Positions 7,764 through 29,173 are shown, numbered from the stretch's first letter. The stretch is 32,000 bases of DNA from Halogeometricum borinquense DSM 11551 (GCF_000172995.2 NC_014732.1:162835-194834), one strand, 5' to 3'. Notes: a model not told the origin generated them from the letters alone. Program-made: numbers and translations.

Positions 7764-8735
7764 ATGACAACTAGTGTCGAAAGGCTAGTCAGTCGAGAGG
7801 AGATATTCGAGGGTATCGACGTTTGGAATCGTCAGCATCCCGACTTTCGAATCTCCGACGCACTTATCGAGCAGAATCTCTTTGCACCGCTTCCGGATAT
7901 CGAAGTCCGTTGCTATGGTGGATATGATGAACACGAACTCGTTTCGTTCGCGGTCCTCAAACAACTCGACAGTCCAGTACGGGAATTTGAGGACACTGAC
8001 ACGGCGTGGCTTTCGTTGTTCGCATTCGAACCAGACTCCGAACGAGCGCGAACACTCAGCAAAGATCTACTGACGACCGTCGTGGATAAACACGTCGCCG
8101 CTGACCACTCAACGCTACATTTCGGCTGTAGCCCCCAGAACTTTGTGTCTGGAGTTCCGTCAACGTTCCCGGAACCGTATCGAAATGTGCTTCGTGATGT
8201 TGGGTTCGAATCCCAACAAACAGTGTACGATCTGAGTCGAGCGATTACGAGGTTCGACGACCCGGCTACCGTAGAGTCGGTCGGACGCGAATTGGAGACG
8301 CTCCGTGTAGAACGGGCTACTGGATCCGAGGCAGATCTGCTGTCGTTCCTCGAAGATCAATTTCCGGGGCGCTGGTACTACGAAGCGCGCAATATCTGTC
8401 GTATCCCCGGTGGAGCGGCCGACTACTGGCTGCTCCGCTGGGACGGTGATGTTGTTGGCTTCGCTCGTAGTAATCGCTGGGATGGATCGTATCGGGGACC
8501 GAACGTCAACTGGGGATGGCGTTTGTCCAACGTGTACTGTGGTGTTGGCCCGCTCGGGATCCACGAAGAGCAGCAAGGTCGCGGATGGGGGTTGTTCATG
8601 ATCACGAAAATCGTACAGCGGCTGAAACAGGACGGATACGACACGATGGTTATCGACTGGACCGATATTCCGGGATATTACGAAAAGCTCGGGTTCGAAA
8701 GATGGATCTCTTACGAACGAATGGCAAGAGAATAG
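7764..8735 (+). CDS. GNAT-family acetyltransferase-like protein with an uncharacterised N-terminal region
   Basis: The C-terminal motif-A-like segment is IHEEQQGRGWGLFMITKIVQRLKQDGYDTMVIDWTDIPGYYEKLGFERW. I prefer the ATG at 7764 over the TTG at 7749. Confidence 0.75.
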   Translation: MTTSVERLVSREEIFEGIDVWNRQHPDFRISDALIEQNLFAPLPDIEVRCYGGYDEHELVSFAVLKQLDSPVREFEDTDTAWLSLFAFEPDSERARTLSKDLLTTVVDKHVAADHSTLHFGCSPQNFVSGVPSTFPEPYRNVLRDVGFESQQTVYDLSRAITRFDDPATVESVGRELETLRVERATGSEADLLSFLEDQFPGRWYYEARNICRIPGGAADYWLLRWDGDVVGFARSNRWDGSYRGPNVNWGWRLSNVYCGVGPLGIHEEQQGRGWGLFMITKIVQRLKQDGYDTMVIDWTDIPGYYEKLGFERWISYERMARE

Positions 8736-10571: not shown

Positions 10572-11117
10572 TCACTTCGTCGCGGATTCGAGCACGAGCG
10601 TGTCGTCTTCGAGGTAGTGGTCGATGACGTGCGCGTGTTCTTCTATGTCCATGAGTTGCTCTCGGAGCATCTCACCGGTTGCGTAGTCGCCAAGGCCCTC
10701 GATGAGTTCGATGTGTTCTCTGTAGCTCTCGATGATGTCACCGTACATTTCGAGGTCGTTCGAGAGCGACGTCCGGATGTCGTAGACATCCTCGTCTTCG
10801 GCTTCCACCGTTGCGGCCTCCGAGAGTGCGGTCATACTGGCGTGTGGGACACCACCGAGCGTCTGAATCCGTTCGGCGACATCGTCAGCCGCGTCCTCGA
10901 CGTCCTCGTAGGCTTCCTGGAGGAAAATGTGAATATCGCGGTGTTCAGCGCCCTCGACGTTCCAGTGGTGTTTGTGTAGTTGGTGGTAGAGGACGTACGC
11001 GTCCGCGAGGTCGGTGTTCAGCGCGTCTACAATCTGTTCTACTTTGTCTTCATCGAGTCGTACAGGGTTCTCGCCAACGGTTCCTTCTTGACGGCGAACG
11101 GTCTCTTGTGTGCTCAT
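10572..11117 (-). CDS. dpsA: Dps-family DNA-protecting / ferritin-like protein
   Basis: ALNTDLADAYVLYHQLHKHHWNVEGAEHRDIHIFLQEAYEDVEDAADDVAERIQTLGG carries the Dps ferroxidase signature. Starting at ATG 11117 (MSTQETV) gives 181 aa, the typical length. Confidence 0.9.
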   Translation of the reverse strand: MSTQETVRRQEGTVGENPVRLDEDKVEQIVDALNTDLADAYVLYHQLHKHHWNVEGAEHRDIHIFLQEAYEDVEDAADDVAERIQTLGGVPHASMTALSEAATVEAEDEDVYDIRTSLSNDLEMYGDIIESYREHIELIEGLGDYATGEMLREQLMDIEEHAHVIDHYLEDDTLVLESATK

Positions 11118-11451
11118 TGCACGCAGTTGTTGGTTCGGAACCCTCTTAATACTTTCATCGATCAAACAATTTTTCGCGTTGCCTAAAACACCACAATCGT
11201 ACAGTAAATTGGTCTGTGGCGGAGTCTAGTGTATTCTCGAATTCCATGTGTCGATATTTCGAGTGCAATACGGTACGTTGATCGGGAAATGTCGTATCAT
11301 CTTGGAACTCACAGATTCACGTTCAGCGTTCCGATTCTCGGACGTGCAATCAACAGGAGTTCCGACTGGGGGGATTGCAGGGCCCGAAGAACGGGAGCGA
11401 AATACTCGCAAACGAACTTTCCAGTCTCTACCACCGGCATCACTCAAGATC

Positions 11452-11835
11452 TTACTTACATTCTGGATAGGCCTCATCTGCCTGAACGCGGTCTTTGGCA
11501 GCGAGTTCAAGATAGGGCTTCAAAGCGTCTGCCCTCTCTTCGAGTTCGATCAGTTGTTGGTCTGCATCGAACGTAAGTACACCAGCGTCATTGAGTTTCG
11601 AGAGGTGCGTATGGTAAAGAGACGTGACCGTTCGCTCACGATCCTCAGCAGTCGTCGTCTCGCACGCAACGAGTTGGTCGGCTAGTTCTTGCAGCCCGAT
11701 AGTACCGGCATGATCCATGAGAAATCGTAGAACGTCGCGTCGCTGCCTACTTATGAGTAGGTCAAACGCTGTATCTGGAGGAAACGCATTGCTGTGTGTA
11801 TCTGGCTCTGACCAGTCTCTCTCTCGTTCGGTCAT
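11452..11835 (-). CDS. haloarchaeal ArsR-like winged-helix DNA-binding protein
   Basis: AFDLLISRQRRDVLRFLMDHAGTIGLQELADQLVACE...SLYHTHLSKLNDAGVLTFDADQQLIEL is the common haloarchaeal HTH pattern. Confidence 0.8.
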   Translation of the reverse strand: MTERERDWSEPDTHSNAFPPDTAFDLLISRQRRDVLRFLMDHAGTIGLQELADQLVACETTTAEDRERTVTSLYHTHLSKLNDAGVLTFDADQQLIELEERADALKPYLELAAKDRVQADEAYPECK

Positions 11836-12464: not shown

Positions 12465-14873
12465 CTAGTCGAACAGTCCAATCTCATCGATCTGTTCCAG
12501 AACCTTCCGAGTCGCCTTCCGCACGTGGAGGTAGAACGTCGGTGACGTGATCCCGAGCGCATCGGCGAGTTCATCACCGGTCGAACAGCGTGGCGATTCG
12601 AAGAAGCCGGCGCGGTAGGCGAGTTCCAGAACCTCACGTTGGCGGTCGGTCAACAGTTCGTCAAGTGCGTCCTGTGTGAGATTGATCGACCGAACTGGGC
12701 GGTCAACCGAACGCTTGGCGATGAAAGTCGTATCCGGGTACGCTGCTTGAATTCCGGAGATGATCTTGCGGCTATCCGCATCCGGGGCAATCTCTCCGAC
12801 AACGGTTTCGTCACCGCTCTCGATGATTGCGGATGTCACAGTCGCACCGTATTCCAGCAGCGTCGTCACCGGTGACTGACTCACCTTGTATTCGACCGTG
12901 CCGGACGTTCCGGTCGCATCGACGACACGGGGATTTTCGACCACCGGCGAGGACGAGAGCTTCGTTGCTACCGCTTCGGGTGACACTCCATCAACCGACG
13001 TATAGCAGAGGTATGCGTTTTCAGAGGTGGGTACGATTGTTTTGAGTTCGAGCCGACAGTCGAGTTCCTCGCTTACCCGAACGAAGATCGATTCCGCACT
13101 TGACGTCTTGAACTCCAGTTCGACGACGGTATCCGTATGAAGGAGCCGTTCGTTCTCTGCGGCGTAGATTGCGTGCCCGATACGTTCCCCGAGTTCACGA
13201 AGCAATCCTTGCTCGTATTCGTCAAACGCGTTCGGCCGGTCCGAGTAGACCCCGATCACACCGTAAACAGTTCCATCAAAGGCAACCGGGATGGCGGCTG
13301 ACGATTGATATCCACCATCGAGCGCATTCTTATGCAACGATTCCGATAACGGATCAGTGAGGATATTCCGGGCTGCTTGGACATCGCAGGAGTGGACGGC
13401 CCGGCCGACCGGTCCCCGAACCGAGTCACCCTCGTTAGTTGTCACCGCAAAGTCGTCGAGACACTCGTCTTCGATTTCAGCCCACTCCTGTGGGGTCACT
13501 TGTTCACGTTCCGGAATATAGTCGCCGTACCACGCAAACAGGTAGGCATCGGACGCCGCTAACTGCTCGCAGACCACCTGTTCGATTTCGTCTCGTGTTG
13601 GGGCCTGCGCGAGCGCTCGATTGAGGGGGCGAAGGCTGTCTGTGATTTGCTTAACGCGTTCGAGTGCGACCCGTTGCCGTTCGAGTGTGCGCTCGCGCTC
13701 TTTTTGGTCGGTGATATCAGCACTCACTGCGACGAACCGCTCGATCTCTCCGTCATCGTCTGTCACTGGCGCGATCGTCTGATTAACGACGTATCGTTCG
13801 CCGGTCTTCCGCTGATTGGTCACTTCGCCCTGCCACACCTCACCCGAACGGATCGTTTCCCAAAGGTCCGCGTAGAACTCGTCGTTGTGCTCTCCGGAGC
13901 TAAGAAGTCGTGGCGTCTCGCCGCAGGCTTCTTCCTCCGAGTAGCCGGTGATATCCTCAAACGCTGGATTAACGTACTCGATGGTACCATCTGTATCAGT
14001 CATATAAATCGAGTGACCTGCTTGCTCAACTGCCTCGCGGAATGCCCGCAATCGCTCTTCGCGTTCCTTACGTTCAGTGATGTCCTCGGCGACGCCATCG
14101 ATGTAGACCTCTCCCTGTTCTTCCCGCCTGATCGCCGTGATTGACGTCCAAATCGTCTCACCTGTCGCAGTTTGTACTTTCAGTTCTTCGTCCGATATAA
14201 CGCCGTCCTCACGTAGCCGTTCCTGGAAGATCTGCCGCTCGTCTGGATCGGCGTAGAAATCCGCAGGGCCTTGCTGGAGGAGAGCCTCCATCGACGTGAC
14301 GTCGAGCATCTCTCGTAACGCTGTATTCCCCTCGACGAAGGTGCCACCGGAACAGGCCTCCGTTCGGTAAATTCCCTCCGGGAGGTGCGTAATTATATCT
14401 TCGTAGCGCTCGAGTTCGTTCCGGCGTTTTTCTCGGTCGGTGTTGTCCCGGAGTATCCCCGTGAAGAGCCGTTGGCCGTCGTGGCTGTGTTCTCGAAAGC
14501 GAATTGAAACTGGGACCTCGTGGCCGTCTTTGTGTCGCGCTGGAAAGTCAACGTCGTCCCAGTCCATCTGGCGTTCGCCTGTTTCGATGTACTGTTGGAA
14601 CGCCCGCGTGTGCTGTTGGTCAAGTCGATCAGGGACGAGCGTGAGCAGCGGTTGGCCGACTAGCTCGTTCGGTTGGTACCCGAGGATACGTTCGACTGCC
14701 GGGTTAGCAAAGACGATTGTGCTGTCTTCATCTACTGTGAGAAGACCCTCCGATGTGTTTGCCACGAGCGCTTGACAGAACTCCGTGGCATCGACATCGA
14801 GAGGAGATGTAGTAAAAACGCTCTCGAGGTCCCCACCCCACTTAGAGAACGAATTCTCACTCCGATTAGTCAT
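12465..14873 (-). CDS. Bat-like (bacterio-opsin activator family) sensor regulator: PAS x3, GAF, HTH_10
   Basis: 802 aa. PAS cores include GLLTVDEDSTIVFANPAVERILGYQPNELVGQPL and HSIYMTDTDGTIEYVNPAFEDITGYSEEE. The C-terminus LTDRQREVLELAYRAGFFESPRCSTGDELADALGITSPTFYLHVRKATRKVLE is the HTH_10 signature. Confidence 0.9.
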   Translation of the reverse strand: MTNRSENSFSKWGGDLESVFTTSPLDVDATEFCQALVANTSEGLLTVDEDSTIVFANPAVERILGYQPNELVGQPLLTLVPDRLDQQHTRAFQQYIETGERQMDWDDVDFPARHKDGHEVPVSIRFREHSHDGQRLFTGILRDNTDREKRRNELERYEDIITHLPEGIYRTEACSGGTFVEGNTALREMLDVTSMEALLQQGPADFYADPDERQIFQERLREDGVISDEELKVQTATGETIWTSITAIRREEQGEVYIDGVAEDITERKEREERLRAFREAVEQAGHSIYMTDTDGTIEYVNPAFEDITGYSEEEACGETPRLLSSGEHNDEFYADLWETIRSGEVWQGEVTNQRKTGERYVVNQTIAPVTDDDGEIERFVAVSADITDQKERERTLERQRVALERVKQITDSLRPLNRALAQAPTRDEIEQVVCEQLAASDAYLFAWYGDYIPEREQVTPQEWAEIEDECLDDFAVTTNEGDSVRGPVGRAVHSCDVQAARNILTDPLSESLHKNALDGGYQSSAAIPVAFDGTVYGVIGVYSDRPNAFDEYEQGLLRELGERIGHAIYAAENERLLHTDTVVELEFKTSSAESIFVRVSEELDCRLELKTIVPTSENAYLCYTSVDGVSPEAVATKLSSSPVVENPRVVDATGTSGTVEYKVSQSPVTTLLEYGATVTSAIIESGDETVVGEIAPDADSRKIISGIQAAYPDTTFIAKRSVDRPVRSINLTQDALDELLTDRQREVLELAYRAGFFESPRCSTGDELADALGITSPTFYLHVRKATRKVLEQIDEIGLFD

Positions 14874-15061
14874 TGGCGGCTCTGAGAGACAAGCACTGAA
14901 AAGCTCGTTGGAGAATGTGTATTATTGCCGTTCAAGATGGATTTGAATATCTACCCGCGCGTTCACGAATAGAACTCCGTTTCACGCACTGAAACAGCGT
15001 TCACGCTGTCGAACGTGTCTTGGTAGGAGGGGACAACACCTGTGTCACCGTTCGGTATAGT

Positions 15062-16477
15062 ATGACGGGGAAGTCAATCAGTGGCGAACCAACAGAACAG
15101 TTCGAAGCGGCGTTATACGGTGACCTGATTCGTCCCACCGATGCCGACTACGACGACGCCCGTGCGGTTTGGAACGGGATGATCGATAAGCATCCAGCGC
15201 TTATCGTGCGGTGTCAGGGTGTCGCTGATGTCGTTGCCGCCGTGAACTTCGCCCGCGAAAACGATGTTCTTGTTGCGGTTCGCGGTGGCGGACACAACGT
15301 TTCGGGGAACGCAGTCTGTGACGACGGCCTCGTTATCGACCTTTCTGAGATGACCGGCGTCAGAGTCGATCCAGCGGCGCAGACGGCGTGGGTCCAAGCC
15401 GGTGCCACGTGGGCCGACCTCGACCGCGAGACGCAACTATTCGGACTCGCGACACCCGGAGGCGTCGTTTCGGATACAGGCATTGCCGGGTTGACACTCG
15501 GCGGCGGAATCGGTCATCTCCGCTGCAAGTACGGTTTGAGCTGTGACAATCTTCGTTCGGTAGAACTCGTCACTGCCGACGGCGAGTTCCTGACGGCCAG
15601 CACAGACGAAAACGAAGAGTTGTTCTGGGGTCTCCGCGGCGGCGGCGGAAACTTCGGTGTAGTCACGGCGTTCGAGTTCGATCTTCACCCGGTTGGACCC
15701 GATGTCGCAACCTGTCTCGTGTTCTATCCGGGTGACCAGTTGCACGACTGTCTGCAAGCATACCGGGCGTACGCCGAATCGTCACCGGATGAAGTGAGTT
15801 CGCTCACGTTTGCGGGTGTGATGCCCGATGCGGAACTCTTCTCGGCGGACGTTCTACACGACTTCAAAATTGCGTTCATGGGCTGCTATGCGGGTCCCGC
15901 CGGAGAGGGAGAGTCCGCGCTCGCTCCACTCCGGGAGTTCGCCGAACCGATTGCTGACTTCAGCGGGACGATGCCGTACACCGACTTCCAGCAACTACTC
16001 GATGAAGATTACCCCGACGGAATGCGGTATTACTGGAAGTCGCTCTACCTCGACGGACTCTCCGATTCGGTCATCGAACGGATCGGACACTGGGCTGAGG
16101 CAGCGCCTTCACCGCTCTCAACAGTCGATGTGTGGCAACTCGGAGGTGCAATTGCGGATATCGATACCGATGAAAGCGCCTTCGCTGGCCGACACGCTCC
16201 GTTCCTCCTCGGCGTAGAGGCCAACTGGGAAGATTCCGAAAACGACGACGACAACGTGGCGTGGGTCCGCGACTGCCTCGATGATATGCGCCAGTTTTCG
16301 GACGGATCAGTCTATCTTAATTTTCCGGGCTTCTTCGAGGAGGGCGACGACATGATGCGGACCACGTTCGGCCCAGCGTACGAGCGGTTGGCCGAACTGA
16401 AAGATGAGTACGACCCAACGAACCGCTTCAGCCTCAATCAGAACATCGTACCGTCCGGAACTGCACAGACAGAATAG
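15062..16477 (+). CDS. FAD-linked oxidase (FAD_binding_4 plus BBE-like C-terminus)
   Basis: VAVRGGGHNVSGNAV is the FAD-binding PCMH motif. DEYDPTNRFSLNQNI is a BBE-type C-terminus. I prefer the ATG at 15062 over the TTG at 15020. Confidence 0.9.
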   Translation: MTGKSISGEPTEQFEAALYGDLIRPTDADYDDARAVWNGMIDKHPALIVRCQGVADVVAAVNFARENDVLVAVRGGGHNVSGNAVCDDGLVIDLSEMTGVRVDPAAQTAWVQAGATWADLDRETQLFGLATPGGVVSDTGIAGLTLGGGIGHLRCKYGLSCDNLRSVELVTADGEFLTASTDENEELFWGLRGGGGNFGVVTAFEFDLHPVGPDVATCLVFYPGDQLHDCLQAYRAYAESSPDEVSSLTFAGVMPDAELFSADVLHDFKIAFMGCYAGPAGEGESALAPLREFAEPIADFSGTMPYTDFQQLLDEDYPDGMRYYWKSLYLDGLSDSVIERIGHWAEAAPSPLSTVDVWQLGGAIADIDTDESAFAGRHAPFLLGVEANWEDSENDDDNVAWVRDCLDDMRQFSDGSVYLNFPGFFEEGDDMMRTTFGPAYERLAELKDEYDPTNRFSLNQNIVPSGTAQTE

Positions 16478-17482: not shown

Positions 17483-18412
17483 TTAACAAGATAGAAAGGA
17501 ACTCAGTTTGAATATCGGCGACTGGCGAGACGCTCGTAGTGGTCTAAGTGTATGGGAACCAGTTTCGGGAGCGACAACGTCAGTGGACAGAATGCGCGTG
17601 AACGCGTTTCCGAGCGCGTAGTAGCGGGAATTGAACGGCCGAACAACTGCGAGTGCAGCCTTGGCAAGCGGTTTCGGAACGTGTGTAGTCTTCACCCGTC
17701 CGTCGAGCGTACGAGACGCAAGCGCCGCAATCTCGTCGTACGTAAACGTCTCCGGGCCGCCCACAGCGAACTCCTCACGGTCGTCAGAGACCGCATCGGC
17801 GCACGCTGCAGCAAGGTCCGCACCGTGAATAGGGTTGATACGCGCGTTCCCGTCACCGACGAGGAATACTCGCGCCCGGCGGGCCATCTCGAAAAACTCG
17901 GTCATATCCGAGAAGTACCCGGTCGGTCGAACGACCGTCTGCGAGATTTCGGCGTCGTATAACTCATCTACGAACTGCTCTCGCGGTTCCACGAGCGATC
18001 CCCAAAGTTCCGGGGCGAACACCGAAACGAACACGAATCGCTCGACGCCTGCATCGAGCGCTAAGTCGAGAAGGGTTCGGTTCGCCCCGTAATCAACCTC
18101 CCAGTGACTCGCCTGCTGGCGAGTCACACCGAGCGACGAAAAGACCACGTCAATTCCATCGCACAAACCGTCGAGCGTGTCCGAATCCGTAGCCGTGCCG
18201 ACGAAGAGGTCGTCGATGTCCGACCGCACCGCCGGTTCGAGAAACCGACCTGGTGTAGAGAGTTTTTCGACCGATTGCGGCCGCGAAAGCGCCCGCACCC
18301 AGCAGCCGCGACGTTTGAAGGCGCAAACCGCGTATCGGCCGAGATAGCCGGTTGCACCGGCGACCAACACCCGCGTCGGATTCTCCTCCAAGGTATTTTC
18401 TATATTTTGCAT
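17483..18412 (-). CDS. NAD(P)H-binding NmrA/atypical-SDR family protein
   Basis: The N-terminal Rossmann motif is RVLVAGATGYLGRY. The length is 309 aa. The protein starts MQNIEN. Confidence 0.85.
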   Translation of the reverse strand: MQNIENTLEENPTRVLVAGATGYLGRYAVCAFKRRGCWVRALSRPQSVEKLSTPGRFLEPAVRSDIDDLFVGTATDSDTLDGLCDGIDVVFSSLGVTRQQASHWEVDYGANRTLLDLALDAGVERFVFVSVFAPELWGSLVEPREQFVDELYDAEISQTVVRPTGYFSDMTEFFEMARRARVFLVGDGNARINPIHGADLAAACADAVSDDREEFAVGGPETFTYDEIAALASRTLDGRVKTTHVPKPLAKAALAVVRPFNSRYYALGNAFTRILSTDVVAPETGSHTLRPLRASRQSPIFKLSSFLSC

Positions 18413-18466: not shown

Positions 18467-19012
18467 ATGACGGAAGAGGCGTACGACGAGGCACGAACCG
18501 AAATTGCCGACGCGATGGCTCGGACGGCGGAACTGTACGGACTCAACAGAAGTTATGGGCGAGTGTACGGATTCCTCTACTTCGCAGGTGGACCCAAATC
18601 TCTCGACGAATTAGCCGAGGAGACAGGATACGCGAAGTCCACGGTGAGCAACGCGATGGGAACGCTCGAACGGTATCACCTCGTCCACAGACGGTCGGCA
18701 CCCGGCGAGGGCCGGAAGGTATACTTCGAAGCCGAAACGGATTTCTGGACTGTTCTCACGGAACTGTTCGAACGGGAGGGTCGCCGAGAGATACGTATCA
18801 TGCGACGAGCACTGGAGAACGCACAGGAGACGCTCGAAGAGGCGCCGGAGACAGAGGAGACGAAGCGTGCCGAAGAGCGAATCGAACAACTCCAGCAGCT
18901 CTACCGACAGTCAGAACGCGTCCTCGAATTCTTCACCGAGGTTCCCATCGACGAACTTCTCGCGTATATCTCCGAGTTTCGGAACCGAGACACCGCCACC
19001 CGCGACGACTGA
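18467..19012 (+). CDS. GbsR/MarR-like winged-helix transcriptional regulator
   Basis: GLNRSYGRVYGFLYFAGGPKSLDELAEETGYAKSTVSNAMGTLERYHLVHRR is a wHTH, followed by a helical acidic C-terminus. Confidence 0.85.
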   Translation: MTEEAYDEARTEIADAMARTAELYGLNRSYGRVYGFLYFAGGPKSLDELAEETGYAKSTVSNAMGTLERYHLVHRRSAPGEGRKVYFEAETDFWTVLTELFEREGRREIRIMRRALENAQETLEEAPETEETKRAEERIEQLQQLYRQSERVLEFFTEVPIDELLAYISEFRNRDTATRDD

Positions 19013-20186: not shown

Positions 20187-21143
20187 ATGAACGCGATTCG
20201 CGTACACGAATACGGCGACGCGGATGTGCTGACTCACGAAGATATACCACGTCCGGAACCGGCCGCCGACGAACTCCTCGTGCGGGTACACGCCGCAGGA
20301 GTGAATCCCATCGACTGGATGGTTCGGGAGGGGTACGCAGACAACGCACTCGATCCGTCGCTTCCGTACGTCCCGGGGTGGGACCTGTCCGGTGTCGTAG
20401 CTGACGTCGGGACGTCCGTCTCGGCGTTCGCCCCCGGTGACGAAGTCTTCGGACTCGTGGGGATGCCGGACCCCGGAAACGCCTACGCCGAATACGCAAC
20501 CGTTCCGGCTGAGGACGTTGTGCTAAAATCGGACGCGCTCACCCACGAGGAGGCCGCCGCCATCCCGATGGTCGCGCTGACCGCTCGACGCGCGCTCTTC
20601 GAAGTTGGCGACGTACGATCCGGACAGCGTGTCCTCGTCCACGCCGCCGCCGGAGGCGTCGGCCACATCGCGGTGCAGTTGGCGTCGCACGCCGGTGCGT
20701 CCGTGATCGGAACAGCATCCGCACGCAACGAGGGCTTCCTCCGAGAGTTGGGCGTTGACGAGTTCGTCGATTACCGGAACCAGTCGTTCGAGGACGAACT
20801 CTCCGACATCGATGTCATCCTCGATGCCGTCGGCGGCGAAACACTCGAACAGTCGATAGACGTGATAACACACGGGGGTCGCATCGTCACCCTTCCGAAA
20901 CCACCGTCTCAGAACGTGGTCACGAACGCCCGCAACGAACGGAACGCATCGATTGACTGGTTCAGCGTCGAACCGGACGCAGCGGCGCTCTCGGAGATAC
21001 GAACGCTCGTCGAGAACGGTCACCTCAGTGTGACCGTCAGCGACGCGTGGCCGCTTTCAGAGGCGCACGCTGCCCACAGAGCGAGCCAACGCGGCCACGT
21101 CCGAGGAAAACTCGTCCTCACGACTGACTTCGAAGCCGACTGA
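20187..21143 (+). CDS. NADPH:quinone oxidoreductase / zinc-type alcohol dehydrogenase (MDR) family
   Basis: MNAIRVHEYGDADVLTHEDIPRPEPAADELLVRVHAAGVNPIDW matches the family N-terminus. The nucleotide-binding segment is VLVHAAAGGVGHIAVQLA. The ATG lies 1 nt after the stop of the preceding remnant. Confidence 0.9.
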   Translation: MNAIRVHEYGDADVLTHEDIPRPEPAADELLVRVHAAGVNPIDWMVREGYADNALDPSLPYVPGWDLSGVVADVGTSVSAFAPGDEVFGLVGMPDPGNAYAEYATVPAEDVVLKSDALTHEEAAAIPMVALTARRALFEVGDVRSGQRVLVHAAAGGVGHIAVQLASHAGASVIGTASARNEGFLRELGVDEFVDYRNQSFEDELSDIDVILDAVGGETLEQSIDVITHGGRIVTLPKPPSQNVVTNARNERNASIDWFSVEPDAAALSEIRTLVENGHLSVTVSDAWPLSEAHAAHRASQRGHVRGKLVLTTDFEAD

Positions 21144-21194: not shown

Positions 21195-22172
21195 TTACTT
21201 CTGTCCGTAACTTGCGACGTGGTATTCCATCACCGTACGCATCCCGTCAACGAGACGGCGAACGTCGAAGCTCTCGATATCGTATTCTCTACTCATCGCA
21301 TCAGCGTATCGAGTCTCCCACTCCAACTCAAACTGCGCTACGATTCCGCTTTCGTCGATACGCGCTATCGCACGTTCTGGGTCGTCGTCAACCGTGATGA
21401 GACCACGTTCGAGCGCTTCGACGACGACGCCAGCAGTGTAGTCGTCTTCGTACAGTTCTCGTTTCCACGTCGTGATCCAGTTGCCGATGCGGGCCATCCG
21501 CTGCAGGTCCAAAAGCAAACTCCGCAGTTGCCCGAGTTCCTGTCGGTCGAACGACGGCGTCCACATCAGATCGATGCCCGCATACGGGAACATCACCATG
21601 TTGAACGGACCGTGGTGCCGAGACTCCGCGAGATTGGCAATCTCCTGGTTGTCGTTGAGGACGCGTGCGTACTCCATCGCGTTGAGGGCCTGTCGAACGT
21701 CGAAAATGAACACGTCCAGATGCTCTTCGTAGCGTGGAGCGGCCGTTAATCTGTCCGTAACGCGGTTCCAGAGCGTCTCGGCGAACCGCAAAATATCAGT
21801 ATCGACGCCCGGCGCATCGTACCGAACTGACTCCGGCGCGTGCGGGAGGCGTCGCGCCTGTTCGAACGTTGCCTCGTCACCGAGGTGGTCCGTCAAGTCA
21901 TCGAGAGCAGTGATGTACATCGTAAACACCGTCTTCGTCGTTGTAACCTCGTCCAAAACGGAAGACGGAACGCACGGAAGCGTGAACGCGTCGAACAAGC
22001 CGTGAATCCATTTCCACAAGAATTCGTCTCTCGTTCCGACGCATCGGTCGTACTCCGCAGATAATTCGATGATTGATTGCGGCAGTTCGGTTTTGTGAAC
22101 CGATTCGATACATCCTGCATAGTCCCCCCCAAGGTCCCCAGCGGATTGGTGGCGTGATATTCTCCCCGGCAT
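21195..22172 (-). CDS. class I terpene synthase-like protein (putative terpenoid cyclase)
   Basis: 325 aa. DDLTD lies at residues 91-95 (DDxxD). NWITTWKRE lies at 231-239 (N-x3-T-x3-E, an NSE/DTE-type triad), 140 residues downstream. Arg185 is 46 residues before N231. An RY pair lies at 288-289. The size suits a single alpha-domain synthase. Confidence 0.6.
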   Translation of the reverse strand: MPGRISRHQSAGDLGGDYAGCIESVHKTELPQSIIELSAEYDRCVGTRDEFLWKWIHGLFDAFTLPCVPSSVLDEVTTTKTVFTMYITALDDLTDHLGDEATFEQARRLPHAPESVRYDAPGVDTDILRFAETLWNRVTDRLTAAPRYEEHLDVFIFDVRQALNAMEYARVLNDNQEIANLAESRHHGPFNMVMFPYAGIDLMWTPSFDRQELGQLRSLLLDLQRMARIGNWITTWKRELYEDDYTAGVVVEALERGLITVDDDPERAIARIDESGIVAQFELEWETRYADAMSREYDIESFDVRRLVDGMRTVMEYHVASYGQK

Positions 22173-22360
22173 ACCTAAATTAACTAATTACTAATATATT
22201 AATCTTCCTGACAGATTTTGAAATTTTTCAAGAGATTCAGCAACCACAGACAATCTTCAGAATATGGATACGGGTGTTTGTTTTATGTAGTAACAAGCTA
22301 TGGACAATGTATTATTAGTTGACACAACCACTTATTGTCAGAGAAATAGTACTAAGAGCA

Positions 22361-25114
22361 ATGACCGCCGAGTCGGCTACATCACAGTCGGCAGCAGTGG
22401 AGGTCCATCTCCTTGGTGACGGACCGCACGCGGCCGACGTTCGAGAGGATTTGCGGTGCGACGACAGAATTTCGGTACAGTCGTCCGACGAGGAGAGCGC
22501 GTCTCCGGTAACCGAGGTCGATTGTATCGTCTGTACGAGCGTCGATGTTGTCTCAGCTACGCCCGACGGACAGGCCCCGGTCGTGGTTGTCCTCTCGACC
22601 GCCGACAACGACGTCATCTCGCGCGCGTACAGCGCTGGCGCAACATCCGTCCTGTTCTCGACCGAAGCCCTTTCAGATCGACTCGCGTGGGTTACAGGAC
22701 TCAGCAGGGCATCAACCGACGACAGCGTTACCACGACAGACGTCACCGACGTCGCCGCCGGATTCAACGATGCCGCGTGCGTCCTCGACCGGCAGTGGCG
22801 TGTCGTAGAAGCGACGGCGGCGTTTTGTGAGTTCTTTGGTGCGGACCCGACACTCGACGGCGAAAATCTCTGGGCCACCTGTCCGAATACACGCACGACG
22901 GCAGACCGATGTTGGCGTGCGGTACTAACCGGTGATGACGCGGAATTCGAGGTGACCTTTCGGGATGGACGACGGGTCGCCGTGAACGCGGTTCCGTTGC
23001 GCGACGGCCTCGCACTGCGCTATCGAGACGTGAGCGAACGCACGGAGACGGAGAGAGCACTCGACCGGTACAAACGAATCCTCGAAACGATCGACGACGG
23101 AATCTACATCTTAGACGAGAACTTCCAGATCGCGGCGGTCAACGAAGCCGTCTTGGAGATGACCGGCTACGACCGAGAAACGCTCGTCGGCGAACACGCG
23201 ACGATGCTTGCTGACGAGTCGGTGATCATCGAAGCGAGCGCGATCATCCAGCGGATACTCACGGGCGAACTGTCTGACGGTCGTCTCGACGTAGAACTGG
23301 AGACCGCAGACGGCAGTAGACTGCCTGTCGAAACGCGGTTTTCTGCACTTCGGTTTAATGACGGAACTCACGGAACGGTGGGTGTCATCCGCGATATCAG
23401 TGACCGAAGACAGTACGAGCAGACGCTGACAGCGCTCAACAGCTCGGCACACGAACTGTTCAATTCTCAGACAAAGCCGGCAGTCGGTGAGAGGGTTCTC
23501 AACACAGCCACACAGATTCTCGAACTGGAATCGGTTGTCGTCTTCCTCTACGACGAATCGGTCGGTGAACTCCGACCGGTCGCGTGGGAAGGAACGGGAT
23601 CACCGCCGTCTATCGGCCCCGGTGACGGCGTGCTCTGGACGTGCTTCGTCGAGTGTGAGTCCGTCCACCTCAGAACTGACGAACAGACGCTCGACCGCTG
23701 GGACCGACTCGAAGCCGTAGATTCGGACGCGTCGAACGGAGAGAGCGTCGCTATTCCGCTCGGTGAACACGGTGTTCTCGCCACATCGTCGTCCGGAGAG
23801 AACGCCCCCCGGAATCAGTCCACCCTGACACACCTCTTGGCCGCAAACGCGGAGGCCGCACTTGATCGTGTCACTCGGTCTATCGAACTGAAGCGTCGCA
23901 GGGGCGAGTTGGCGCGGCGAAACGAGGAGTTGATGAATCTGAACCGGTTTAACGAACTGCTCCGAGAGGTCAATCGCGTCCTCGTCGAAGCCGACTCACG
24001 CGAGGAGATAGAGCGCGCCGTCTGCGAACGACTCGTCGAGGGACCAGCAATCGCGTTCGCGTGGGTCGGCGCCTACGACCGGGTGGACGAAGCAATTGGT
24101 TCACGCGCGTGGGCGGGCGCCGAGCGCGGGTATCTCGACTGCCTAAGCGAGTCGCCTGCGGAGTTCCGAACGGAACCGAGTGTGGTGACAACCCGAACCC
24201 ACGAAACGACAGTTGTGGACAACGTGGGACAGGAGATTCAAGCACACCAATGGCGACGCGACGCCCTCGATAGAGGGTTCGCGTCCGTTGCCAGCGTTCC
24301 ATTGACGTACAACGAGTTCAGCTACGGAACCCTGACCATCTACGCGACGGAACCGAACGCCTTCGACAAACAGATGCGACTCATGTTCGAAGAACTCGGC
24401 GTCACGACGGCGAACGCCATCAACGGGGCGGAGGCCAAAGAGTCGCTTCACACGGAGTCGTTCGTCGAGCTCGACGTTCACATCACCAGCCAGAATGAAC
24501 CGCTGCTCCGCATAGCGCAGGCGCTCGATGCCACAGTTCAACTTGAGGGAAGCGTCCAGCAGACGAGCGGTTCGGCGTTACTCTATCTCACGGTTTCGGA
24601 GTCGGACACGACTCGAAACGCGGAGATTCTCTCGTCGTTAACAGTGATCGAACAGGTTCGAGAGATTGCCGCACGCGAGAACGAGACGGTAGTCGAAGTA
24701 CAACTGGCCGCCGAGGCGCTTCCGTCTCGACTGGCTGATTTCGGTGCCGTAGCCCGGACGCTGACAGCGCGACCGGACGCACTCACTGTCGTCATCGAAC
24801 TTCCGTCCGGATCCGAGATACGGAAGTTCGTCGAATACCTTCGAGAGTGGTATCCCGGTACCGAGCTGAACGCCAAGCGAACTCGAGAACGGTCTATCGA
24901 GACGCAGCAATCGTTCCGCGCTCGCCTCCGCAAATCACTGACTGACCGGCAGTTCGAGGCGCTCCGAACCGCCTACTTCTCGGGATACTTCGCGTGGCCC
25001 CGCGAACGAACGGCCAGCGAAATCGCAACGTCACTCGACATCGCACAGCCAACGTTCTCACGCCACTTACGTGTCGCAGAGCAGAAGCTATTCGATAACC
25101 TATTAGCAGACTGA
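22361..25114 (+). CDS. Bat-like sensor regulator: degenerate receiver-like N-terminus, PAS x2, GAF x2, HTH_10
   Basis: PAS cores include AACVLDRQWRVVEATAAFCEFFG and GIYILDENFQIAAVNEAVLEMTGYDRETLVGEH. The C-terminus LTDRQFEALRTAYFSGYFAWPRERTASEIATSLDIAQPTFSRHLRVAEQKLF is the HTH_10 signature. I prefer the ATG at 22361 over the TTG at 22319. Confidence 0.9.
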   Translation: MTAESATSQSAAVEVHLLGDGPHAADVREDLRCDDRISVQSSDEESASPVTEVDCIVCTSVDVVSATPDGQAPVVVVLSTADNDVISRAYSAGATSVLFSTEALSDRLAWVTGLSRASTDDSVTTTDVTDVAAGFNDAACVLDRQWRVVEATAAFCEFFGADPTLDGENLWATCPNTRTTADRCWRAVLTGDDAEFEVTFRDGRRVAVNAVPLRDGLALRYRDVSERTETERALDRYKRILETIDDGIYILDENFQIAAVNEAVLEMTGYDRETLVGEHATMLADESVIIEASAIIQRILTGELSDGRLDVELETADGSRLPVETRFSALRFNDGTHGTVGVIRDISDRRQYEQTLTALNSSAHELFNSQTKPAVGERVLNTATQILELESVVVFLYDESVGELRPVAWEGTGSPPSIGPGDGVLWTCFVECESVHLRTDEQTLDRWDRLEAVDSDASNGESVAIPLGEHGVLATSSSGENAPRNQSTLTHLLAANAEAALDRVTRSIELKRRRGELARRNEELMNLNRFNELLREVNRVLVEADSREEIERAVCERLVEGPAIAFAWVGAYDRVDEAIGSRAWAGAERGYLDCLSESPAEFRTEPSVVTTRTHETTVVDNVGQEIQAHQWRRDALDRGFASVASVPLTYNEFSYGTLTIYATEPNAFDKQMRLMFEELGVTTANAINGAEAKESLHTESFVELDVHITSQNEPLLRIAQALDATVQLEGSVQQTSGSALLYLTVSESDTTRNAEILSSLTVIEQVREIAARENETVVEVQLAAEALPSRLADFGAVARTLTARPDALTVVIELPSGSEIRKFVEYLREWYPGTELNAKRTRERSIETQQSFRARLRKSLTDRQFEALRTAYFSGYFAWPRERTASEIATSLDIAQPTFSRHLRVAEQKLFDNLLAD

Positions 25115-25285: not shown

Positions 25286-25570
25286 ATGAAGCACGGGGGA
25301 AGCGGTGACTCGAAGGTGGGGCACGAGGATCTTGATTGGAGAATCATAACAGCAGTCGCAGATGCGAAAGGCGTCGAACCGCTGGATATCGATGACCGAC
25401 TACACGACATCATCGACGTAGACGCTGTCAAACAGCTGTTCGTCGGGATGCCGGACAAGCGGTCGATGACAGAGGGGCGCGTGAGTTTCACGCTTGACGG
25501 CTGCGAAGTCACTATCAACGAGCGGTGGGATATCAACGTCAACTCACACTCTAGTGTCGCGGCCGACTGA
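25286..25570 (+). CDS. HalOD1 (halobacterial output domain 1) stand-alone protein
   Basis: IITAVADAKGVEPLDIDDRLHDIIDVDAVKQLF....GRVSFTLDGCEVTINERWDINV matches the HalOD1 pattern as I recall it. Confidence 0.75.
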   Translation: MKHGGSGDSKVGHEDLDWRIITAVADAKGVEPLDIDDRLHDIIDVDAVKQLFVGMPDKRSMTEGRVSFTLDGCEVTINERWDINVNSHSSVAAD

Positions 25571-25612: not shown

Positions 25613-28600
25613 CTATCTTGACGGCTGGCGAATCGATTCCCATCCGGGAAGTGCGGCCATCGTCTCGCGCACACGCGTTCGTTCAGCATCGGTCAACTCA
25701 CACAATTCGGCGACTCGTGCGTCGATTCTGTCGTCCACTGACTCGGCGTGACGGTCAAGTTCGGACGCACGCCGGCAGTTTCGTGCGTACCTCGCTAGCG
25801 CCTCCGCGTGCGTCTCCGGATCCGGAACGCGGAGTTCGCGGAGTCGTTCTACGGGCGTCGTCTGCGAACTCCGGCCGACCGGCCGCAGTCCGCACGCCCG
25901 CCGGTTCGTCACCGTCGTCGCGCCGACCGCTCGAAGCCACGTTGAGACCACGAGGAAGTCTCGCGGCGTCAGCGCGTCGAATCGTAACACGGCTCGCGTT
26001 TCGTCTCCGTTACTCGCCTCGTATCCGTCATCCGTCTCGTATCGCATCCGAACCGTAAACGCCGCCCGTTCTTCTTGTACGGAGAAAGATCCGATCCGGA
26101 GGCCGGGCGTTTCACCGCGGTGCGACCGCGAGAGACCGCTGTCAACGACTTCGGGACCAAACTGTTTCAGGGGCACAGACGCCTCGTCGAAGCCGACGAC
26201 AGATTCGATATCGGTGTCGAGTGACGCCCGTTCGCGCCCGATTTCGAGTCGTCGTTCGACGAGTTCGACGAGTTCGTCGTCCACCGACCCAGCCCAGACG
26301 GGAAGCGTCTCGTAGTTCCGTTGGTTGTTCTGCGGAAACTCCGCCGGGTAGGCGTTCCGGCGGACGTAGTGGTAGTAGTTGTAGACGGCGGAGTTCAACA
26401 AGCCGAGGAGATGTAACAACAAGCGTTCCTCGTCCGCGGCATCGGCATCAGCCCCGTCGTCTACGCTGTCATGGTTGCCAGCCCTGTCGGCTACGCTGTC
26501 ATCGTCATCAGCCCCGTCGTCTACGCGGGGTCGTACGTGAGCATCGTACACCGATTTCAGGTTGGCGACGCCCTCAGTGTCAAGTGTTCCGACGAGAAAC
26601 CGGCCAGTCTGTCGGCAGAGCAACTTCGGCGGGTCGTACACGGTCTTCGACACCGCTACCTCGGGAACATAGCGTATCTTGCGGGCGGAAAGCGCGTAGC
26701 GCCGAACGGCCGATCCGGGGACGAGACGCCGCATCCCTGCCGCGGGTGTCTGCCGAACGCGCTCGTCGGATTTACCGAACTCCTCGCCGCGTGCGACGGT
26801 TCCCACAGCCTCGAACGGTTCGAAGCGCTCGAGTTTGCGAAAGATTCCGTCCGCAACGTCGTCGCGCAGGAGTTGAAAGCGTGCGTACTCCTCGTTCTCC
26901 ACGGTTTCTCGTCGGAGACTGCTGTACTCGAACGACCCGTCTGCGACCGTCGTGGCGAACGCGTCGGCGTTACCAAACCACGTCCGGATTGCATCACCCG
27001 AACCCGTCTCATCCGGCGGGCCCGCCTCCGGGCCGCAGACGACGATAGCGGCACCCTCGTTTGCGTCGGCGAAGACGTTCCCGATTCGAAGGAGGTGCGT
27101 GAGACCGCCCGAATCGAGGAGGAATCGGCGCGCGGACGCAACGGAAAGGCGAACGAGCAACGCGTCAGGGACGACGAACGCCACGTAGCCGTCGGGTGCG
27201 AGACGACACGCACGTTCGAGGAAGGCCGCATAGAGGTTCGGTTGCGGACCATTGGTGGAGTCGAACGCTTTCCTGAGATACGCCGACGTATCGCCGTCGA
27301 TACGCGCGCTGATGTCTGCCCGTCCGGCCGTTCCCTTCCACGGCGGATTGCCGACGACGGCGTCGAATCCGACACCACCGCGTCCGCTGTTCTCGGAGTC
27401 AAACACGCCCGAGAACGCCTCTTGCCACCGAATCGCTCCCGGCAGTGCATCGTTTCGGGGAGTTGCTAACGAATCGTTTCGGGTCGGATCGGGACCGGGA
27501 CCGAGCAACGCGTCACCGCATCGCAAGTGGTCAGCGAGCGTGGGGAGTGTCTCGACGCTTGTGCCGGGACCAAGCGTCTCCGCGAGACAGACCAGACGTG
27601 CGACCGTCGTTGCAGCGGGATTACGGTCAACGCCGTAGAGACATTGCGAGACAACCGCTCGGCGGATCGACGCGAACGATTCGACCGGCGCATCTGCGTG
27701 ACGAGCGGCCCGCCGAATTCCGGACGCGAGTCGTCGCGCGACGGCAACGAGGAGCGTTCCACCACCCATCGCGGGGTCCACAACTCGCCTGCTGAGAAGA
27801 CGTGTCCGAACGTCGGCGGCGACGTTCGTTGCCGATTCGTCCGACGCGGCAGTCCGGGCGTCCCGGACGAGTGACCCAGCCGTCTGCGCTGCGAGGTATG
27901 TGACGACCGACTCCGGAGTATAGAACGACCCGTTGGTCTTCCGTCGCGTCGTCTCCGCGGCCGACGGATCGTCGAACGCGGTTTCGAGGAGTCGTTCGTG
28001 AGCGTCCGCAAGCAGCCGAACGTCTACAGTTCGGTAATCGACGCTATACCACGTATCATCACAAGAGACGGTCGTGAGAAGCGCACAGACGTATTCCAGC
28101 GTCCCGTCGTCGATAGACGAGACATCGAGGCACGGTCGCTCCGTGGCGGTTCGCTCAGTCTCGGTTCGTGTGGGGTCGGTTCGTTCGGAATCGCTTTGTT
28201 CGGGAGCAGTTCGATCAGGAGTAGTTCGTTCGGGAGCAGTTTGGTCAGCGTCGCTCGATGATTGGGTCGTCCAATCAGAGACAAATGGACCGCCGAGCGT
28301 CGAGTCAGCGGCGTGGGCGGCCCACTCACGGAGGATCGTACGCTCCGTAGCGTCGAGCACTATCGCTTCTGTCGGGCCATCTGCCGCCCGTGCGTCGGCC
28401 ACGAGTGTGTCACGAACGGCATGGAGCGCGTCGGGGCGGTCGGAGAATAGCGACGAACCAGTTCGGTCGGCAGCGAATAAATCGAAGGCGAGACGGAAGA
28501 CGAGAGCAGCCGGGGCGTCGGATGACGGACAGTTGGTGGAGTCGCAGATCGCTCCGACGGCCGTAACGAAGCCGTCACAGAGCGACTCACGAACGGATGC

Positions 28601-29173
28601 TCGACGCGTCGCGTCCGCCGATGCAAGTGCGTCGAGGAACGACTGAGAGTCGTCGTGTGATTCGCCGCCTTCGAACGCCTCGTGTGCGAACAGTGCGACG
28701 AAGTGACGGAGCGGTGAGTCGGCGTTAGCAGGATGTGACGCCGTATCCAGTCCCTCGTAGTCACCGTCAAACGCCGGTGCCGCCGCGGCGAGCGTTCGTA
28801 GGTCGAGTTCGTGATACCGTTGTTCGTCCGGGTCGCCGCCGCCGTACAGTCGCCAGTAGCGCCCGTCGGTGAGGACGCCCCATCGGTTCGTTCCGTCGAG
28901 TCGGCACACGAGCGTTCGTGCGGCGGACTCTCGACCGTTCGCGTCGAGGGCACCGGGGGAAACCGTCTCGACGGTAACGTCGCCGTCCGTGAGACCCAAC
29001 GCGTCGCAGATAGCTCTTTGACGTGCGTCACTGTCCCGCCACGCTCGTTTGACTGCCGCTGTCCGTTCGTCAAGCGTGGTCTCGTCGCGCCGCGCGTCCA
29101 CGAGCGCAGGAAGGTCAGCCCGCAGTGTGGGAAGGGCAAATCGCGGGTCGGCGACGCGGCGTGGAACGGACAT
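25613..29173 (-). CDS. Eco57I/TaqI-type gamma-class N6-adenine DNA methyltransferase, type IIG-like large single-chain enzyme
   Basis: 1186 aa. NGSFYTPESVVTYL is the FxTP motif. VVDPAMGGGTLLVAV is SAM motif I. FDAVVGNPPWKG is the NPPW catalytic motif IV. The helical N-domain motif is ALVFRLAFDLFAADRTG. The C-terminal part is a TaqI_C-like specificity region ending ELCELTDAERTRVRE. Confidence 0.9.
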   Translation of the reverse strand: MSVPRRVADPRFALPTLRADLPALVDARRDETTLDERTAAVKRAWRDSDARQRAICDALGLTDGDVTVETVSPGALDANGRESAARTLVCRLDGTNRWGVLTDGRYWRLYGGGDPDEQRYHELDLRTLAAAAPAFDGDYEGLDTASHPANADSPLRHFVALFAHEAFEGGESHDDSQSFLDALASADATRRASVRESLCDGFVTAVGAICDSTNCPSSDAPAALVFRLAFDLFAADRTGSSLFSDRPDALHAVRDTLVADARAADGPTEAIVLDATERTILREWAAHAADSTLGGPFVSDWTTQSSSDADQTAPERTTPDRTAPEQSDSERTDPTRTETERTATERPCLDVSSIDDGTLEYVCALLTTVSCDDTWYSVDYRTVDVRLLADAHERLLETAFDDPSAAETTRRKTNGSFYTPESVVTYLAAQTAGSLVRDARTAASDESATNVAADVRTRLLSRRVVDPAMGGGTLLVAVARRLASGIRRAARHADAPVESFASIRRAVVSQCLYGVDRNPAATTVARLVCLAETLGPGTSVETLPTLADHLRCGDALLGPGPDPTRNDSLATPRNDALPGAIRWQEAFSGVFDSENSGRGGVGFDAVVGNPPWKGTAGRADISARIDGDTSAYLRKAFDSTNGPQPNLYAAFLERACRLAPDGYVAFVVPDALLVRLSVASARRFLLDSGGLTHLLRIGNVFADANEGAAIVVCGPEAGPPDETGSGDAIRTWFGNADAFATTVADGSFEYSSLRRETVENEEYARFQLLRDDVADGIFRKLERFEPFEAVGTVARGEEFGKSDERVRQTPAAGMRRLVPGSAVRRYALSARKIRYVPEVAVSKTVYDPPKLLCRQTGRFLVGTLDTEGVANLKSVYDAHVRPRVDDGADDDDSVADRAGNHDSVDDGADADAADEERLLLHLLGLLNSAVYNYYHYVRRNAYPAEFPQNNQRNYETLPVWAGSVDDELVELVERRLEIGRERASLDTDIESVVGFDEASVPLKQFGPEVVDSGLSRSHRGETPGLRIGSFSVQEERAAFTVRMRYETDDGYEASNGDETRAVLRFDALTPRDFLVVSTWLRAVGATTVTNRRACGLRPVGRSSQTTPVERLRELRVPDPETHAEALARYARNCRRASELDRHAESVDDRIDARVAELCELTDAERTRVRETMAALPGWESIRQPSR
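26445..26530 (-). repeat. in-frame ~30-bp tandem repeat (about 3 units) inside the methyltransferase gene
   Basis: catcagccccgtcgtctacgc occurs at 26445-26465 and again at 26505-26525. ctacgctgtcat occurs at 26460-26471 and 26490-26501. The region encodes DDGADDDDSVADRAGNHDSVDDGADADAADEE. Confidence 0.8.
28198..28257 (-). repeat. in-frame ~30-bp tandem repeat inside the methyltransferase gene
   Basis: gttcgggagcagtt occurs at 28198-28211 and again at 28228-28241. The surrounding ggttcg-rich tract encodes DQTAPERTTPDRTAPEQSDSERTDPTRTETERTATERP. Confidence 0.7.

Follow-up and report, generated by a model that had tools for sequence, protein, structure and literature searches.

A divergent class I terpene-synthase-like family of haloarchaea, linked to Bat-type sensor regulators and other signaling proteins

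The window analyzed here is a 32,000-nucleotide (nt) stretch of Halogeometricum borinquense DSM 11551 (GCF_000172995.2 NC_014732.1:162835-194834), and this report concerns a gene within it that encodes a class I terpene-synthase-like protein of 325 amino acids (aa). This synthase-like gene is divergently paired, across an AT-rich spacer, with a gene for a Bat-type sensor regulator, and a small gene encoding a HalOD1 protein (halobacterial output domain 1) follows the regulator. Our comparisons revealed that the synthase-like gene and the regulator are paired in many haloarchaeal genomes, and that more distant relatives of the synthase-like protein are fused to signaling domains or to enzymes of isoprenoid precursor supply. 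The features of the locus, in window coordinates, are as follows.

21195..22172, minus strand: synthase-like gene (325 aa, class I terpene-synthase-like)
21306..21311, minus strand: R288-Y289, of which the Arg alone is kept family-wide
21456..21482, minus strand: NWITTWKRE, residues 231-239, NSE-type second metal-binding motif, in predicted helix 210-241
21888..21902, minus strand: DDLTD, residues 91-95, Asp-rich Mg-binding motif, at the C-terminal end of predicted helix 70-95
22173..22360, no strand: AT-rich divergent promoter region of the synthase-like gene and the regulator gene (188 bp)
22197..22209, minus strand: box AGGAAGATTAATA, the TTAATA part of which lies 25-30 nt upstream of the synthase ATG; invariant in three species
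22327..22337, plus strand: box ACCACTTATTG (reverse complement CAATAAGTGGT), 24-34 nt upstream of the ATG at 22361; invariant in three species
22361..25114, plus strand: Bat-type sensor regulator (917 aa) with PAS, GAF, BAT, and HTH_10 domains
25286..25570, plus strand: HalOD1 protein (94 aa), just 3' of the regulator (PF18545, E 2e-16)

Re-derivation of the open reading frame (ORF) from the sequence reproduced what the original prediction had reported, namely, 325 codons with DDLTD at residues 91-95 and NWITTWKRE at residues 231-239, 140 residues apart. The gene is solitary and converges with a Zn-dependent dehydrogenase (Zn-ADH) gene, the 3' end of which lies at 21143. A search of 5.8 billion proteins yielded 239 homologues; those bearing a name are all labeled "hypothetical," all named source organisms are haloarchaea, and the best homologue, at 95% identity, is likewise from H. 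borinquense. We used 121 of the 239 homologues for conservation counts, per-sequence Pfam scans, and the AlphaFold2 alignment. A scan for terpene synthase family 2, proposed together with the original prediction, gave a divided outcome: the window protein itself produced no match, whereas PF19086 (Terpene_syn_C_2, terpene synthase family 2) was matched by 71 of the 121 homologues and PF03936 by 14. More specifically, all seven homologues that were checked singly (P0026, P0033, P0055, P0080, P0083, P0094, and P0104) exceeded the PF19086 gathering cut-off of 23.7 bits, with scores of 24.5-29.9 bits and alignments spanning profile positions 2-194 of 199.

Class I terpene synthases carry DDxx(D/E) on helix D and (N/D)Dxx(S/T)xx(K/R)E (the NSE motif) on helix H, about 140 residues further on; a pyrophosphate-sensor Arg lies about 46 residues before the NSE motif at the helix G break, and an RY pair about 80 residues after it. 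Across the 121 homologues, D91 and D92 never vary and position 95 holds E (90 sequences) or D (31 sequences), while N231, T235, W236, R238, and E239 of the second motif are all invariant. Further invariant positions are R48, K80, D158, N191, M192, D201, R217, Q224, R228, E242, D244, and W285, with N191-M192 falling at a break between predicted helices; the invariant aromatic residues are W53, W55, F63, W135, Y168, F195, Y197, W232, W236, and W285, and a C-terminal H-x-x-A-S-x-G-x-K is conserved through the final residue. The strings DDxx(D/E) and NxxxTWxRE are also present in nearly all of 147 more distant representatives that were checked. Upon shuffling the protein 100,000 times, DDxx[DE] alone arose in 37% of cases, an NSE-like string alone in 30%, and both at a distance of 130-150 residues in 0.6%; as judged from the alignment, it is conservation that lends the motifs real support, beyond these shuffle statistics. 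Having one Asp-rich and one NSE-type motif, the protein follows the synthase pattern and not the two-DDxxD pattern of prenyltransferases.

Two features that had been put forward with the original prediction exist in the window protein but are not fixed in its family. R185 does lie 46 residues before N231, where a pyrophosphate-sensor Arg would be expected, but it is found in only 39 of the 121 homologues; R186 is found in 65, and an Arg or Lys occupies position 185 or 186 in 101, ahead of the helix break at N191-M192. Similarly, the RY pair is present at residues 288-289, with R288 located 57 residues from N231, but R288 is kept in 110/121 sequences (91%) and Y289 in 42/121 (35%). Because Y289 is poorly kept and the protein contains two further RY pairs at residues 117 and 147, an RY "dimer" does not characterize the family. 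On these counts, both R185 and RY288-289 were dropped as family signatures. Two other class assignments were also rejected. For a trans-isoprenyl diphosphate synthase, i.e., a farnesyl or geranylgeranyl diphosphate synthase (FPPS/GGPPS), the protein has only one conserved DDxx(D/E) and no Pfam match, a DDDPE string at 262 lying in a variable, gapped region. For a squalene/phytoene synthase, the protein again has no Pfam match, and SQS_PSY is absent from the 25 families most common among the matches of the 121 homologues.

The AlphaFold2 model built from the 121-sequence alignment is all-helical and was predicted with high confidence (pLDDT 90.2, pTM 0.89). When it was compared with the PDB by Foldseek, all of the top 50 matches were class I terpenoid-synthase folds (E 5e-5 to 9e-4, TM 0.45-0.63), led by hydropyrene synthase (8B4L, the best match, E 5e-5), the N-terminal domain of geosmin synthase (5DZ2), the ent-kaurene synthase BjKS (4XLX, TM 0.63), and T-muurolol synthase (9HQD). 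Alongside ent-kaurene synthase and T-muurolol synthase, FPPS was also among the PDB matches, because the superfold is shared; the top viral structural match was an Orpheovirus "terpenoid synthase." The model supports, if remotely, assigning the 325-aa protein to the class I terpenoid-synthase fold as a divergent member with a single domain. The class I terpene-synthase-like reading of the original prediction was thus borne out by a model that retrieved only such folds, by the PF19086 matches of the homologues, and by the invariant Mg-binding motifs, and the family illustrates how far the class I fold can drift away from existing profiles.

The neighboring gene had been called a Bat-family regulator, and its domain architecture confirms that assignment, with Pfam matches to BAT (PF15915, E 3e-42), GAF_2 (3e-19), HTH_10 (PF04967, 3e-19), and PAS (3e-17), all above cut-offs. 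Residues 1-240 of the regulator (22361-23080) contain no Pfam domain; within them, residues 62-111 faintly resemble the diguanylate cyclase DgcR (NCBIfam NF047654; E 0.11) and are possibly a degenerate receiver-like domain. The stand-alone 94-aa HalOD1 protein scores 60.3 bits against PF18545, the cut-off being 26.3 bits.

To follow the synthase/Bat pairing in other haloarchaea, we compared 80 loci drawn from one-genome-per-species collections, placing neighbors by tblastn. A full-length regulator orthologue lies no more than ~1.2 kb from the synthase-like gene (TS) in 46 of the 80 loci (one of these orthologues being fragmented). The 46 loci show three gene orders (24 divergent, 20 Bat-HalOD1-TS, and 2 TS-Bat-HalOD1), include a HalOD1 gene beside the regulator in 39 cases, and represent at least nine genera, i.e., Halogeometricum, Halomarina, Halorubrum, Haloarcula, Halorientalis, Halobellus, Natronomonas, Halovenus, and Halobaculum. 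The synthase-adjacent regulators score 385-1200 bits against the window regulator (385-500 bits for other genera), compared with 43 bits for the paralogue encoded elsewhere in the window, and therefore form one orthologous group. In ~1.1 Mb of flanking DNA, there were only about 3-5 other Bat-like matches. The pairing of the synthase-like gene with this regulator is not due to chance. At 18 of the loci without the regulator, another sensor gene is found in its stead: a short PAS-HisKA-HATPase kinase no more than 215 bp away at 13 loci, a REC-PAS kinase no more than 34 bp away at 4, and a REC/multi-PAS protein at a distance of 120 bp at one.

Two genomes carry a pair of synthase-like paralogues. 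In a Natronomonas metagenome-assembled genome (MAG; loci L028 and L049), one paralogue adjoins Bat and the other a REC-PAS kinase; in a Halobacteriales MAG (L008 and L083), one adjoins Bat and the other is without a nearby sensor. At the Haloarcula regularis locus (L025, 5074-7071), the Bat orthologue was recovered in three tblastn pieces beside an intact synthase-like gene, and this broken Bat may be a pseudogene or an assembly error.

The divergent spacer, previously described as 188 bp long and AT-rich, indeed has a GC content of 31% versus 57% for the window, the lowest of any stretch of that length, with 0.03% of 188-bp intervals being equally AT-rich. In an alignment of three Halogeometricum species (the window, H. 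pallidum, and H. limi), two blocks of the spacer are invariant. One of them, AGGAAGATTAATA, is a putative BRE/TATA element of a leaderless synthase transcript, and the other, ACCACTTATTG, a putative TATA-like element of the regulator gene, the transcript of which would also be leaderless. Because this second box would fall within the reading frame if translation began at TTG 22319, we favor ATG 22361 (917 aa) as the regulator start. In the synthase-gene upstream regions of 11 other loci (including L012, L016, L023, L031, L036, L041, L042, L045, L046, and L047, from Halorubrum, Halobellus, Halovenus, and MAGs), the string TGAWWNTCAC is located 42-43 nt upstream of a BRE/TATA-like GAACAAAA-N(2-4)-TTAA, making it a candidate regulator binding site. 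The exact string does not occur in the window, which has only the degenerate version CTGAATCTCTTG. In H. pallidum (L006, about 7984-7998), a perfect palindrome, CCTAATTAATTAGG, lies between the TATA-like box and the synthase ATG, and a related sequence, TAATTAGTTAATTTAGG, is found at 22176-22192 of the window; these elements could be operators.

Beyond the close homologues, a profile search of 1.84 billion representatives retrieved 728 representative proteins (50% identity) at E <= 1e-3, and a scan of 185,579 species genomes gave 148 pattern matches, 113 of which encode relatives; the family is widespread in Halobacteria. Among the 147 listed new representatives, 39 have an N-terminal extension of more than 100 aa, and the synthase-like domain (also abbreviated TS in fusions) is always C-terminal. 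In one set of fusions, the partner is an enzyme (P0207, P0237, P0192, P0168, and P0189; loci L088-L090). A complete DXP synthase (DXS)-TS fusion forms a 13-sequence cluster, mostly full length and from several assemblies, annotated as Phycisphaerae (Planctomycetota), a phylum in which degenerate DXS-like-TS forms occur too; an HMG-CoA reductase (HMGR)-TS fusion is known from a single contig with a probable frameshift; a geranylgeranyl-reductase-like FAD domain is fused to the synthase-like domain in another case; and a DHBP synthase-TS fusion has a partner without obvious isoprenoid logic. As independent genomic evidence, the DXS, HMGR, and geranylgeranyl-reductase fusions indicate that this "hypothetical" family works in isoprenoid metabolism.

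In a further set, the partners are signaling domains, namely REC, REC-HalX, REC-PilZ, PilZ, and cyclic nucleotide (cNMP)-binding domains (P0129, P0141, P0149, P0182, P0197, P0205, P0261, P0231, P0262, and P0265; loci L086 and L091). The REC domains of the REC-TS proteins retain the acidic pocket, the phospho-acceptor Asp, and the Thr and Lys residues, and two REC-TS genes adjoin PAS histidine kinases. Genes for a hybrid kinase, a REC-HATPase protein, and a PilZ protein flank one planctomycete DXS-like-TS gene, and IspH is found at a distance of 4 kb. The suggestion that the locus is a controlled terpenoid module is accordingly backed by the conserved pairing, by the replacement of Bat with PAS kinases, and by the REC, PilZ, and cNMP fusions.

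We consider it probable that the synthase-like protein is a Mg-dependent enzyme that ionizes prenyl diphosphates and forms the output end of a signaling module, and we infer its catalysis, its substrate, the direction of its regulation, and the nature of the signal along the following lines. A cluster of three Mg2+ ions would be coordinated by D91, D92, and D95 of helix D and by N231, T235, and E239 of helix H, while the diphosphate group of an all-trans prenyl diphosphate would be bound by the invariant R48, K80, R217, R228, and R238, and in most members also by R288. Haloarchaea make farnesyl, geranylgeranyl, and geranylfarnesyl diphosphates (FPP, GGPP, and GFPP), any of which might be the substrate. 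Following ionization, the carbocation would be cyclized or quenched in a pocket lined by the invariant aromatic residues. In the window, control would be at the level of transcription, with a leaderless synthase promoter being switched by the PAS/GAF/BAT/HTH_10 regulator and its HalOD1 partner in response to light, redox state, a ligand, or some other cue; other lineages would control the domain through an adjacent PAS histidine kinase or through N-terminal REC, PilZ, or cNMP-binding domains. As a tentative generalization, which we hold with less than even confidence, the synthase-like domain may be a dedicated output of signal transduction in both archaea and bacteria, set by phosphorylation (PAS kinase and REC-TS), c-di-GMP (PilZ-TS), cyclic nucleotides (cNMP-TS), or Bat with HalOD1, and in some lineages welded to the first enzyme of the methylerythritol phosphate (MEP) pathway or to the key mevalonate reductase.

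Several observations weigh against the enzyme reading. The 325-aa protein had no Pfam match at E <= 1, an NCBIfam search with it was empty, and nothing relevant was found when PDB sequences were compared with the protein (phmmer), with the 121-homologue profile, or with the best Pfam-scoring homologue. Alignment by hhalign of the family profile with pentalenene synthase, epi-isozizaene synthase, and a 3-sequence bacterial synthase profile gave no signal, so that the register of the motifs relative to canonical enzymes is not demonstrable by sequence. The Foldseek superpositions are loose (TM 0.45-0.63, rmsd 6-10 Å) and extend to FPPS; with TM and rmsd this modest and FPPS also matching, the fold is supported but the subfamily rests on the motifs, whose residues would meet at one site according to the helix assignment in the model. 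Within the second motif, Trp replaces the canonical second Asp (N-W-x-T-T-W-x-R-E); the pyrophosphate-sensor Arg is not fixed in the family; and the RY residues, expected about 80 residues past the NSE motif, are not kept together across the 121 homologues. As for gene context, 16 of the 80 loci are without an adjacent sensor gene (3 of the 16 being too short or at a contig end), and the compared loci have no conserved prenyltransferase, P450, or other tailoring gene near the synthase-like gene.

An alternative is a non-catalytic prenyl-diphosphate sensor, which would bind a Mg-diphosphate-isoprenoid and report the size of the pool to DXS or HMGR, or to Bat, HalOD1, and kinases, as a feedback device. 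Motif conservation does not separate such a sensor from an enzyme, because binding and catalysis need the same motifs. The sensor is favored by the fusion of the domain to both DXS and HMGR, which control flux in isoprenoid precursor supply, by the persistent linkage to signaling proteins in archaea and bacteria, and by the lack of conserved tailoring or prenyltransferase genes nearby. We nevertheless regard it as unlikely: the domain is C-terminal in the REC, PilZ, and cNMP fusions, which is the usual position of an output; the full catalytic motif set is present, and a closed class I site containing three Mg2+ and an allylic diphosphate normally ionizes the latter; and relatives sharing TWxRE may include an active beta-bisabolol synthase. 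We likewise give a low probability to a catalytic class I-fold enzyme that is not a cyclase, i.e., one that releases linear products (farnesol, geranylgeraniol, or farnesene-type) as a regulated relief valve or transfers the prenyl group to an acceptor. Its fold and motifs are those of synthases, the effector and RY features that aid closure of a cyclase site are not conserved, and the link to precursor-pathway enzymes fits flux control; many invariant aromatic residues, however, are typical of cyclases, and this account overlaps with the enzyme reading, from which it differs only in the chemistry after ionization, linear and cyclic products not being discriminated.

That the synthase-like gene and Bat are neighbors by accident might be argued from the abundance of Bat paralogues and HalOD1 in haloarchaea, since two Bat-type genes lie within the 32-kb window and HalOD1 copies exceed 2,000 in haloarchaea as a whole, with up to 49 in one genome. 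Such an accident is hardly credible given adjacency in 46 of 80 species, spanning nine or more genera and three gene orders, the mutual orthology of the neighboring Bats (385-1200 versus 43 bits), the scarcity of other Bat-like matches in the flanks, and the presence of a PAS kinase at the same spot, or of a REC fusion, in other lineages. 

The window contains a number of other genes in the vicinity, as follows.

12465..14873, minus strand: second Bat-type regulator (802 aa) with three PAS domains, GAF, BAT, and HTH_10
15020-16477, plus strand: FAD/BBE-type oxidase
17483-18412, minus strand: NmrA-like NAD(P) protein
18467-19012, plus strand: MarR-type regulator
20187-21143, plus strand: Zn-ADH

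The likeness of the second Bat-type protein to the synthase-linked regulator (43 bits) is confined to a PAS domain, and no opsin, brp, crtB, or other carotenoid genes were found among the window ORFs examined. We also considered the nearby oxidoreductases as tailoring enzymes and rejected this role: Zn-ADH, the sole one searched directly, does not adjoin the synthase-like gene elsewhere, and the conserved neighbors include no recurrent oxidoreductase family. Downstream of HalOD1, 25613-29173 (minus strand) encodes a 1186-aa Eco57I-type restriction-modification methylase, and Halogeometricum limi has a 54%-identical Eco57I-type gene at the same place, beside HalOD1. Two small minus-strand ORFs were assessed by eye only: 10572-11165 (197 aa) looks Dps/ferritin-like, and 11452-11835 (127 aa) resembles small HTH proteins that recur in related loci.

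The enzyme class itself is already known in archaea. The first three active archaeal terpene synthases, all single-domain, are A0A5E4I9B1 (a beta-bisabolol synthase), A0A0E3NXY0, and A0A537EJD0, and many more have been predicted, most of them in Halobacteriota (bioRxiv 10.1101/2024.01.29.577750). The statement in the original prediction that cyclases are rarely described in archaea is therefore outdated in part, although archaeal terpene cyclization has been known only since this recent preprint, and haloarchaeal enzymes of the type are still uncharacterized. Two members of the haloarchaeal family studied here are included in the fine-tuning sequence set of the same work but are not characterized there, and its main text, as searched, is silent on sensor linkage and domain fusions (10.1101/2024.01.29.577750). 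Isoprenoid-related output domains are missing from a 2018 census of archaeal two-component systems, and a full-text literature search found no paper describing REC, PilZ, or cNMP-binding inputs that have a terpene-synthase domain as their output. That this family is systematically wired to sensors, to receptors of second messengers, and to enzymes of the precursor pathways appears not to have been described. If the tentative generalization given above is correct, these would be the first terpene synthases gated directly by second messengers or phosphorylation, haloarchaea would have a signal-induced terpenoid, and cells would make a terpenoid, or drain their prenyl-diphosphate pool, on command. 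Because clues to control are built in (the PAS/GAF regulator, the PAS kinases, and the REC, PilZ, and cNMP fusions), it becomes testable whether microbes turn a terpene synthase on and off through phosphorylation, second messengers, or a sensor regulator, and what purpose its product serves.

The synthase-like protein shares with the published archaeal synthases the form of a single alpha domain that falls below default Pfam thresholds. Like A0A5E4I9B1, it has an Arg 43 residues before DDxxD (R24 before the motif at residue 67 there, R48 before D91 here) and the TWxRE signature (NSE motif NTLNTWPRE there), whereas DDxxD and NSE are 154 residues apart in that enzyme, compared with 140 in the window protein (10.1101/2024.01.29.577750); none of the three published enzymes is stated to be haloarchaeal, and this likeness is drawn from motif descriptions. 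With bacterial and fungal class I synthases (8B4L, 5DZ2, 4XLX, and 9HQD), the protein has in common a single all-helical alpha domain of ~320 aa, a DDxx(D/E) motif ending helix D, an NSE-type motif on helix H 140 residues on, and a basic residue before the last Glu. In contrast to those enzymes, it has no detectable pairwise or profile similarity to them, Trp in place of the second Asp of the NSE motif, no RY pair kept as such in its family, a putative sensor Arg that shifts between 185 and 186 among members, a C-terminal H-x-x-A-S-x-G-x-K, and linkage or fusion to signaling domains.

In Halobacterium salinarum, the Bat regulon comprises bat-brp-bop-crtB1, and the arrangement in the window is similar in that a PAS/GAF/HTH_10 regulator is encoded beside isoprenoid-related genes that are, or here would be, its targets. 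The two regulators are likened here by their domains, and they differ in several respects: the window regulator is a member of its own orthologous group, which accompanies the synthase-like gene; at 917 aa it is the longer protein, having ~240 additional residues at the N terminus and two GAF regions; and HalOD1 is its partner. Fusicoccadiene synthase, a cyclase fused to a GGPP synthase, offers an analogous logic to the DXS-TS and HMGR-TS fusions of the wider family, in which the partner is not a prenyltransferase but the first MEP enzyme or the key mevalonate reductase. Likewise, PleD (REC-GGDEF), a response regulator with an enzymatic output, is analogous in its logic to the REC-TS, PilZ-TS, and cNMP-TS fusions.

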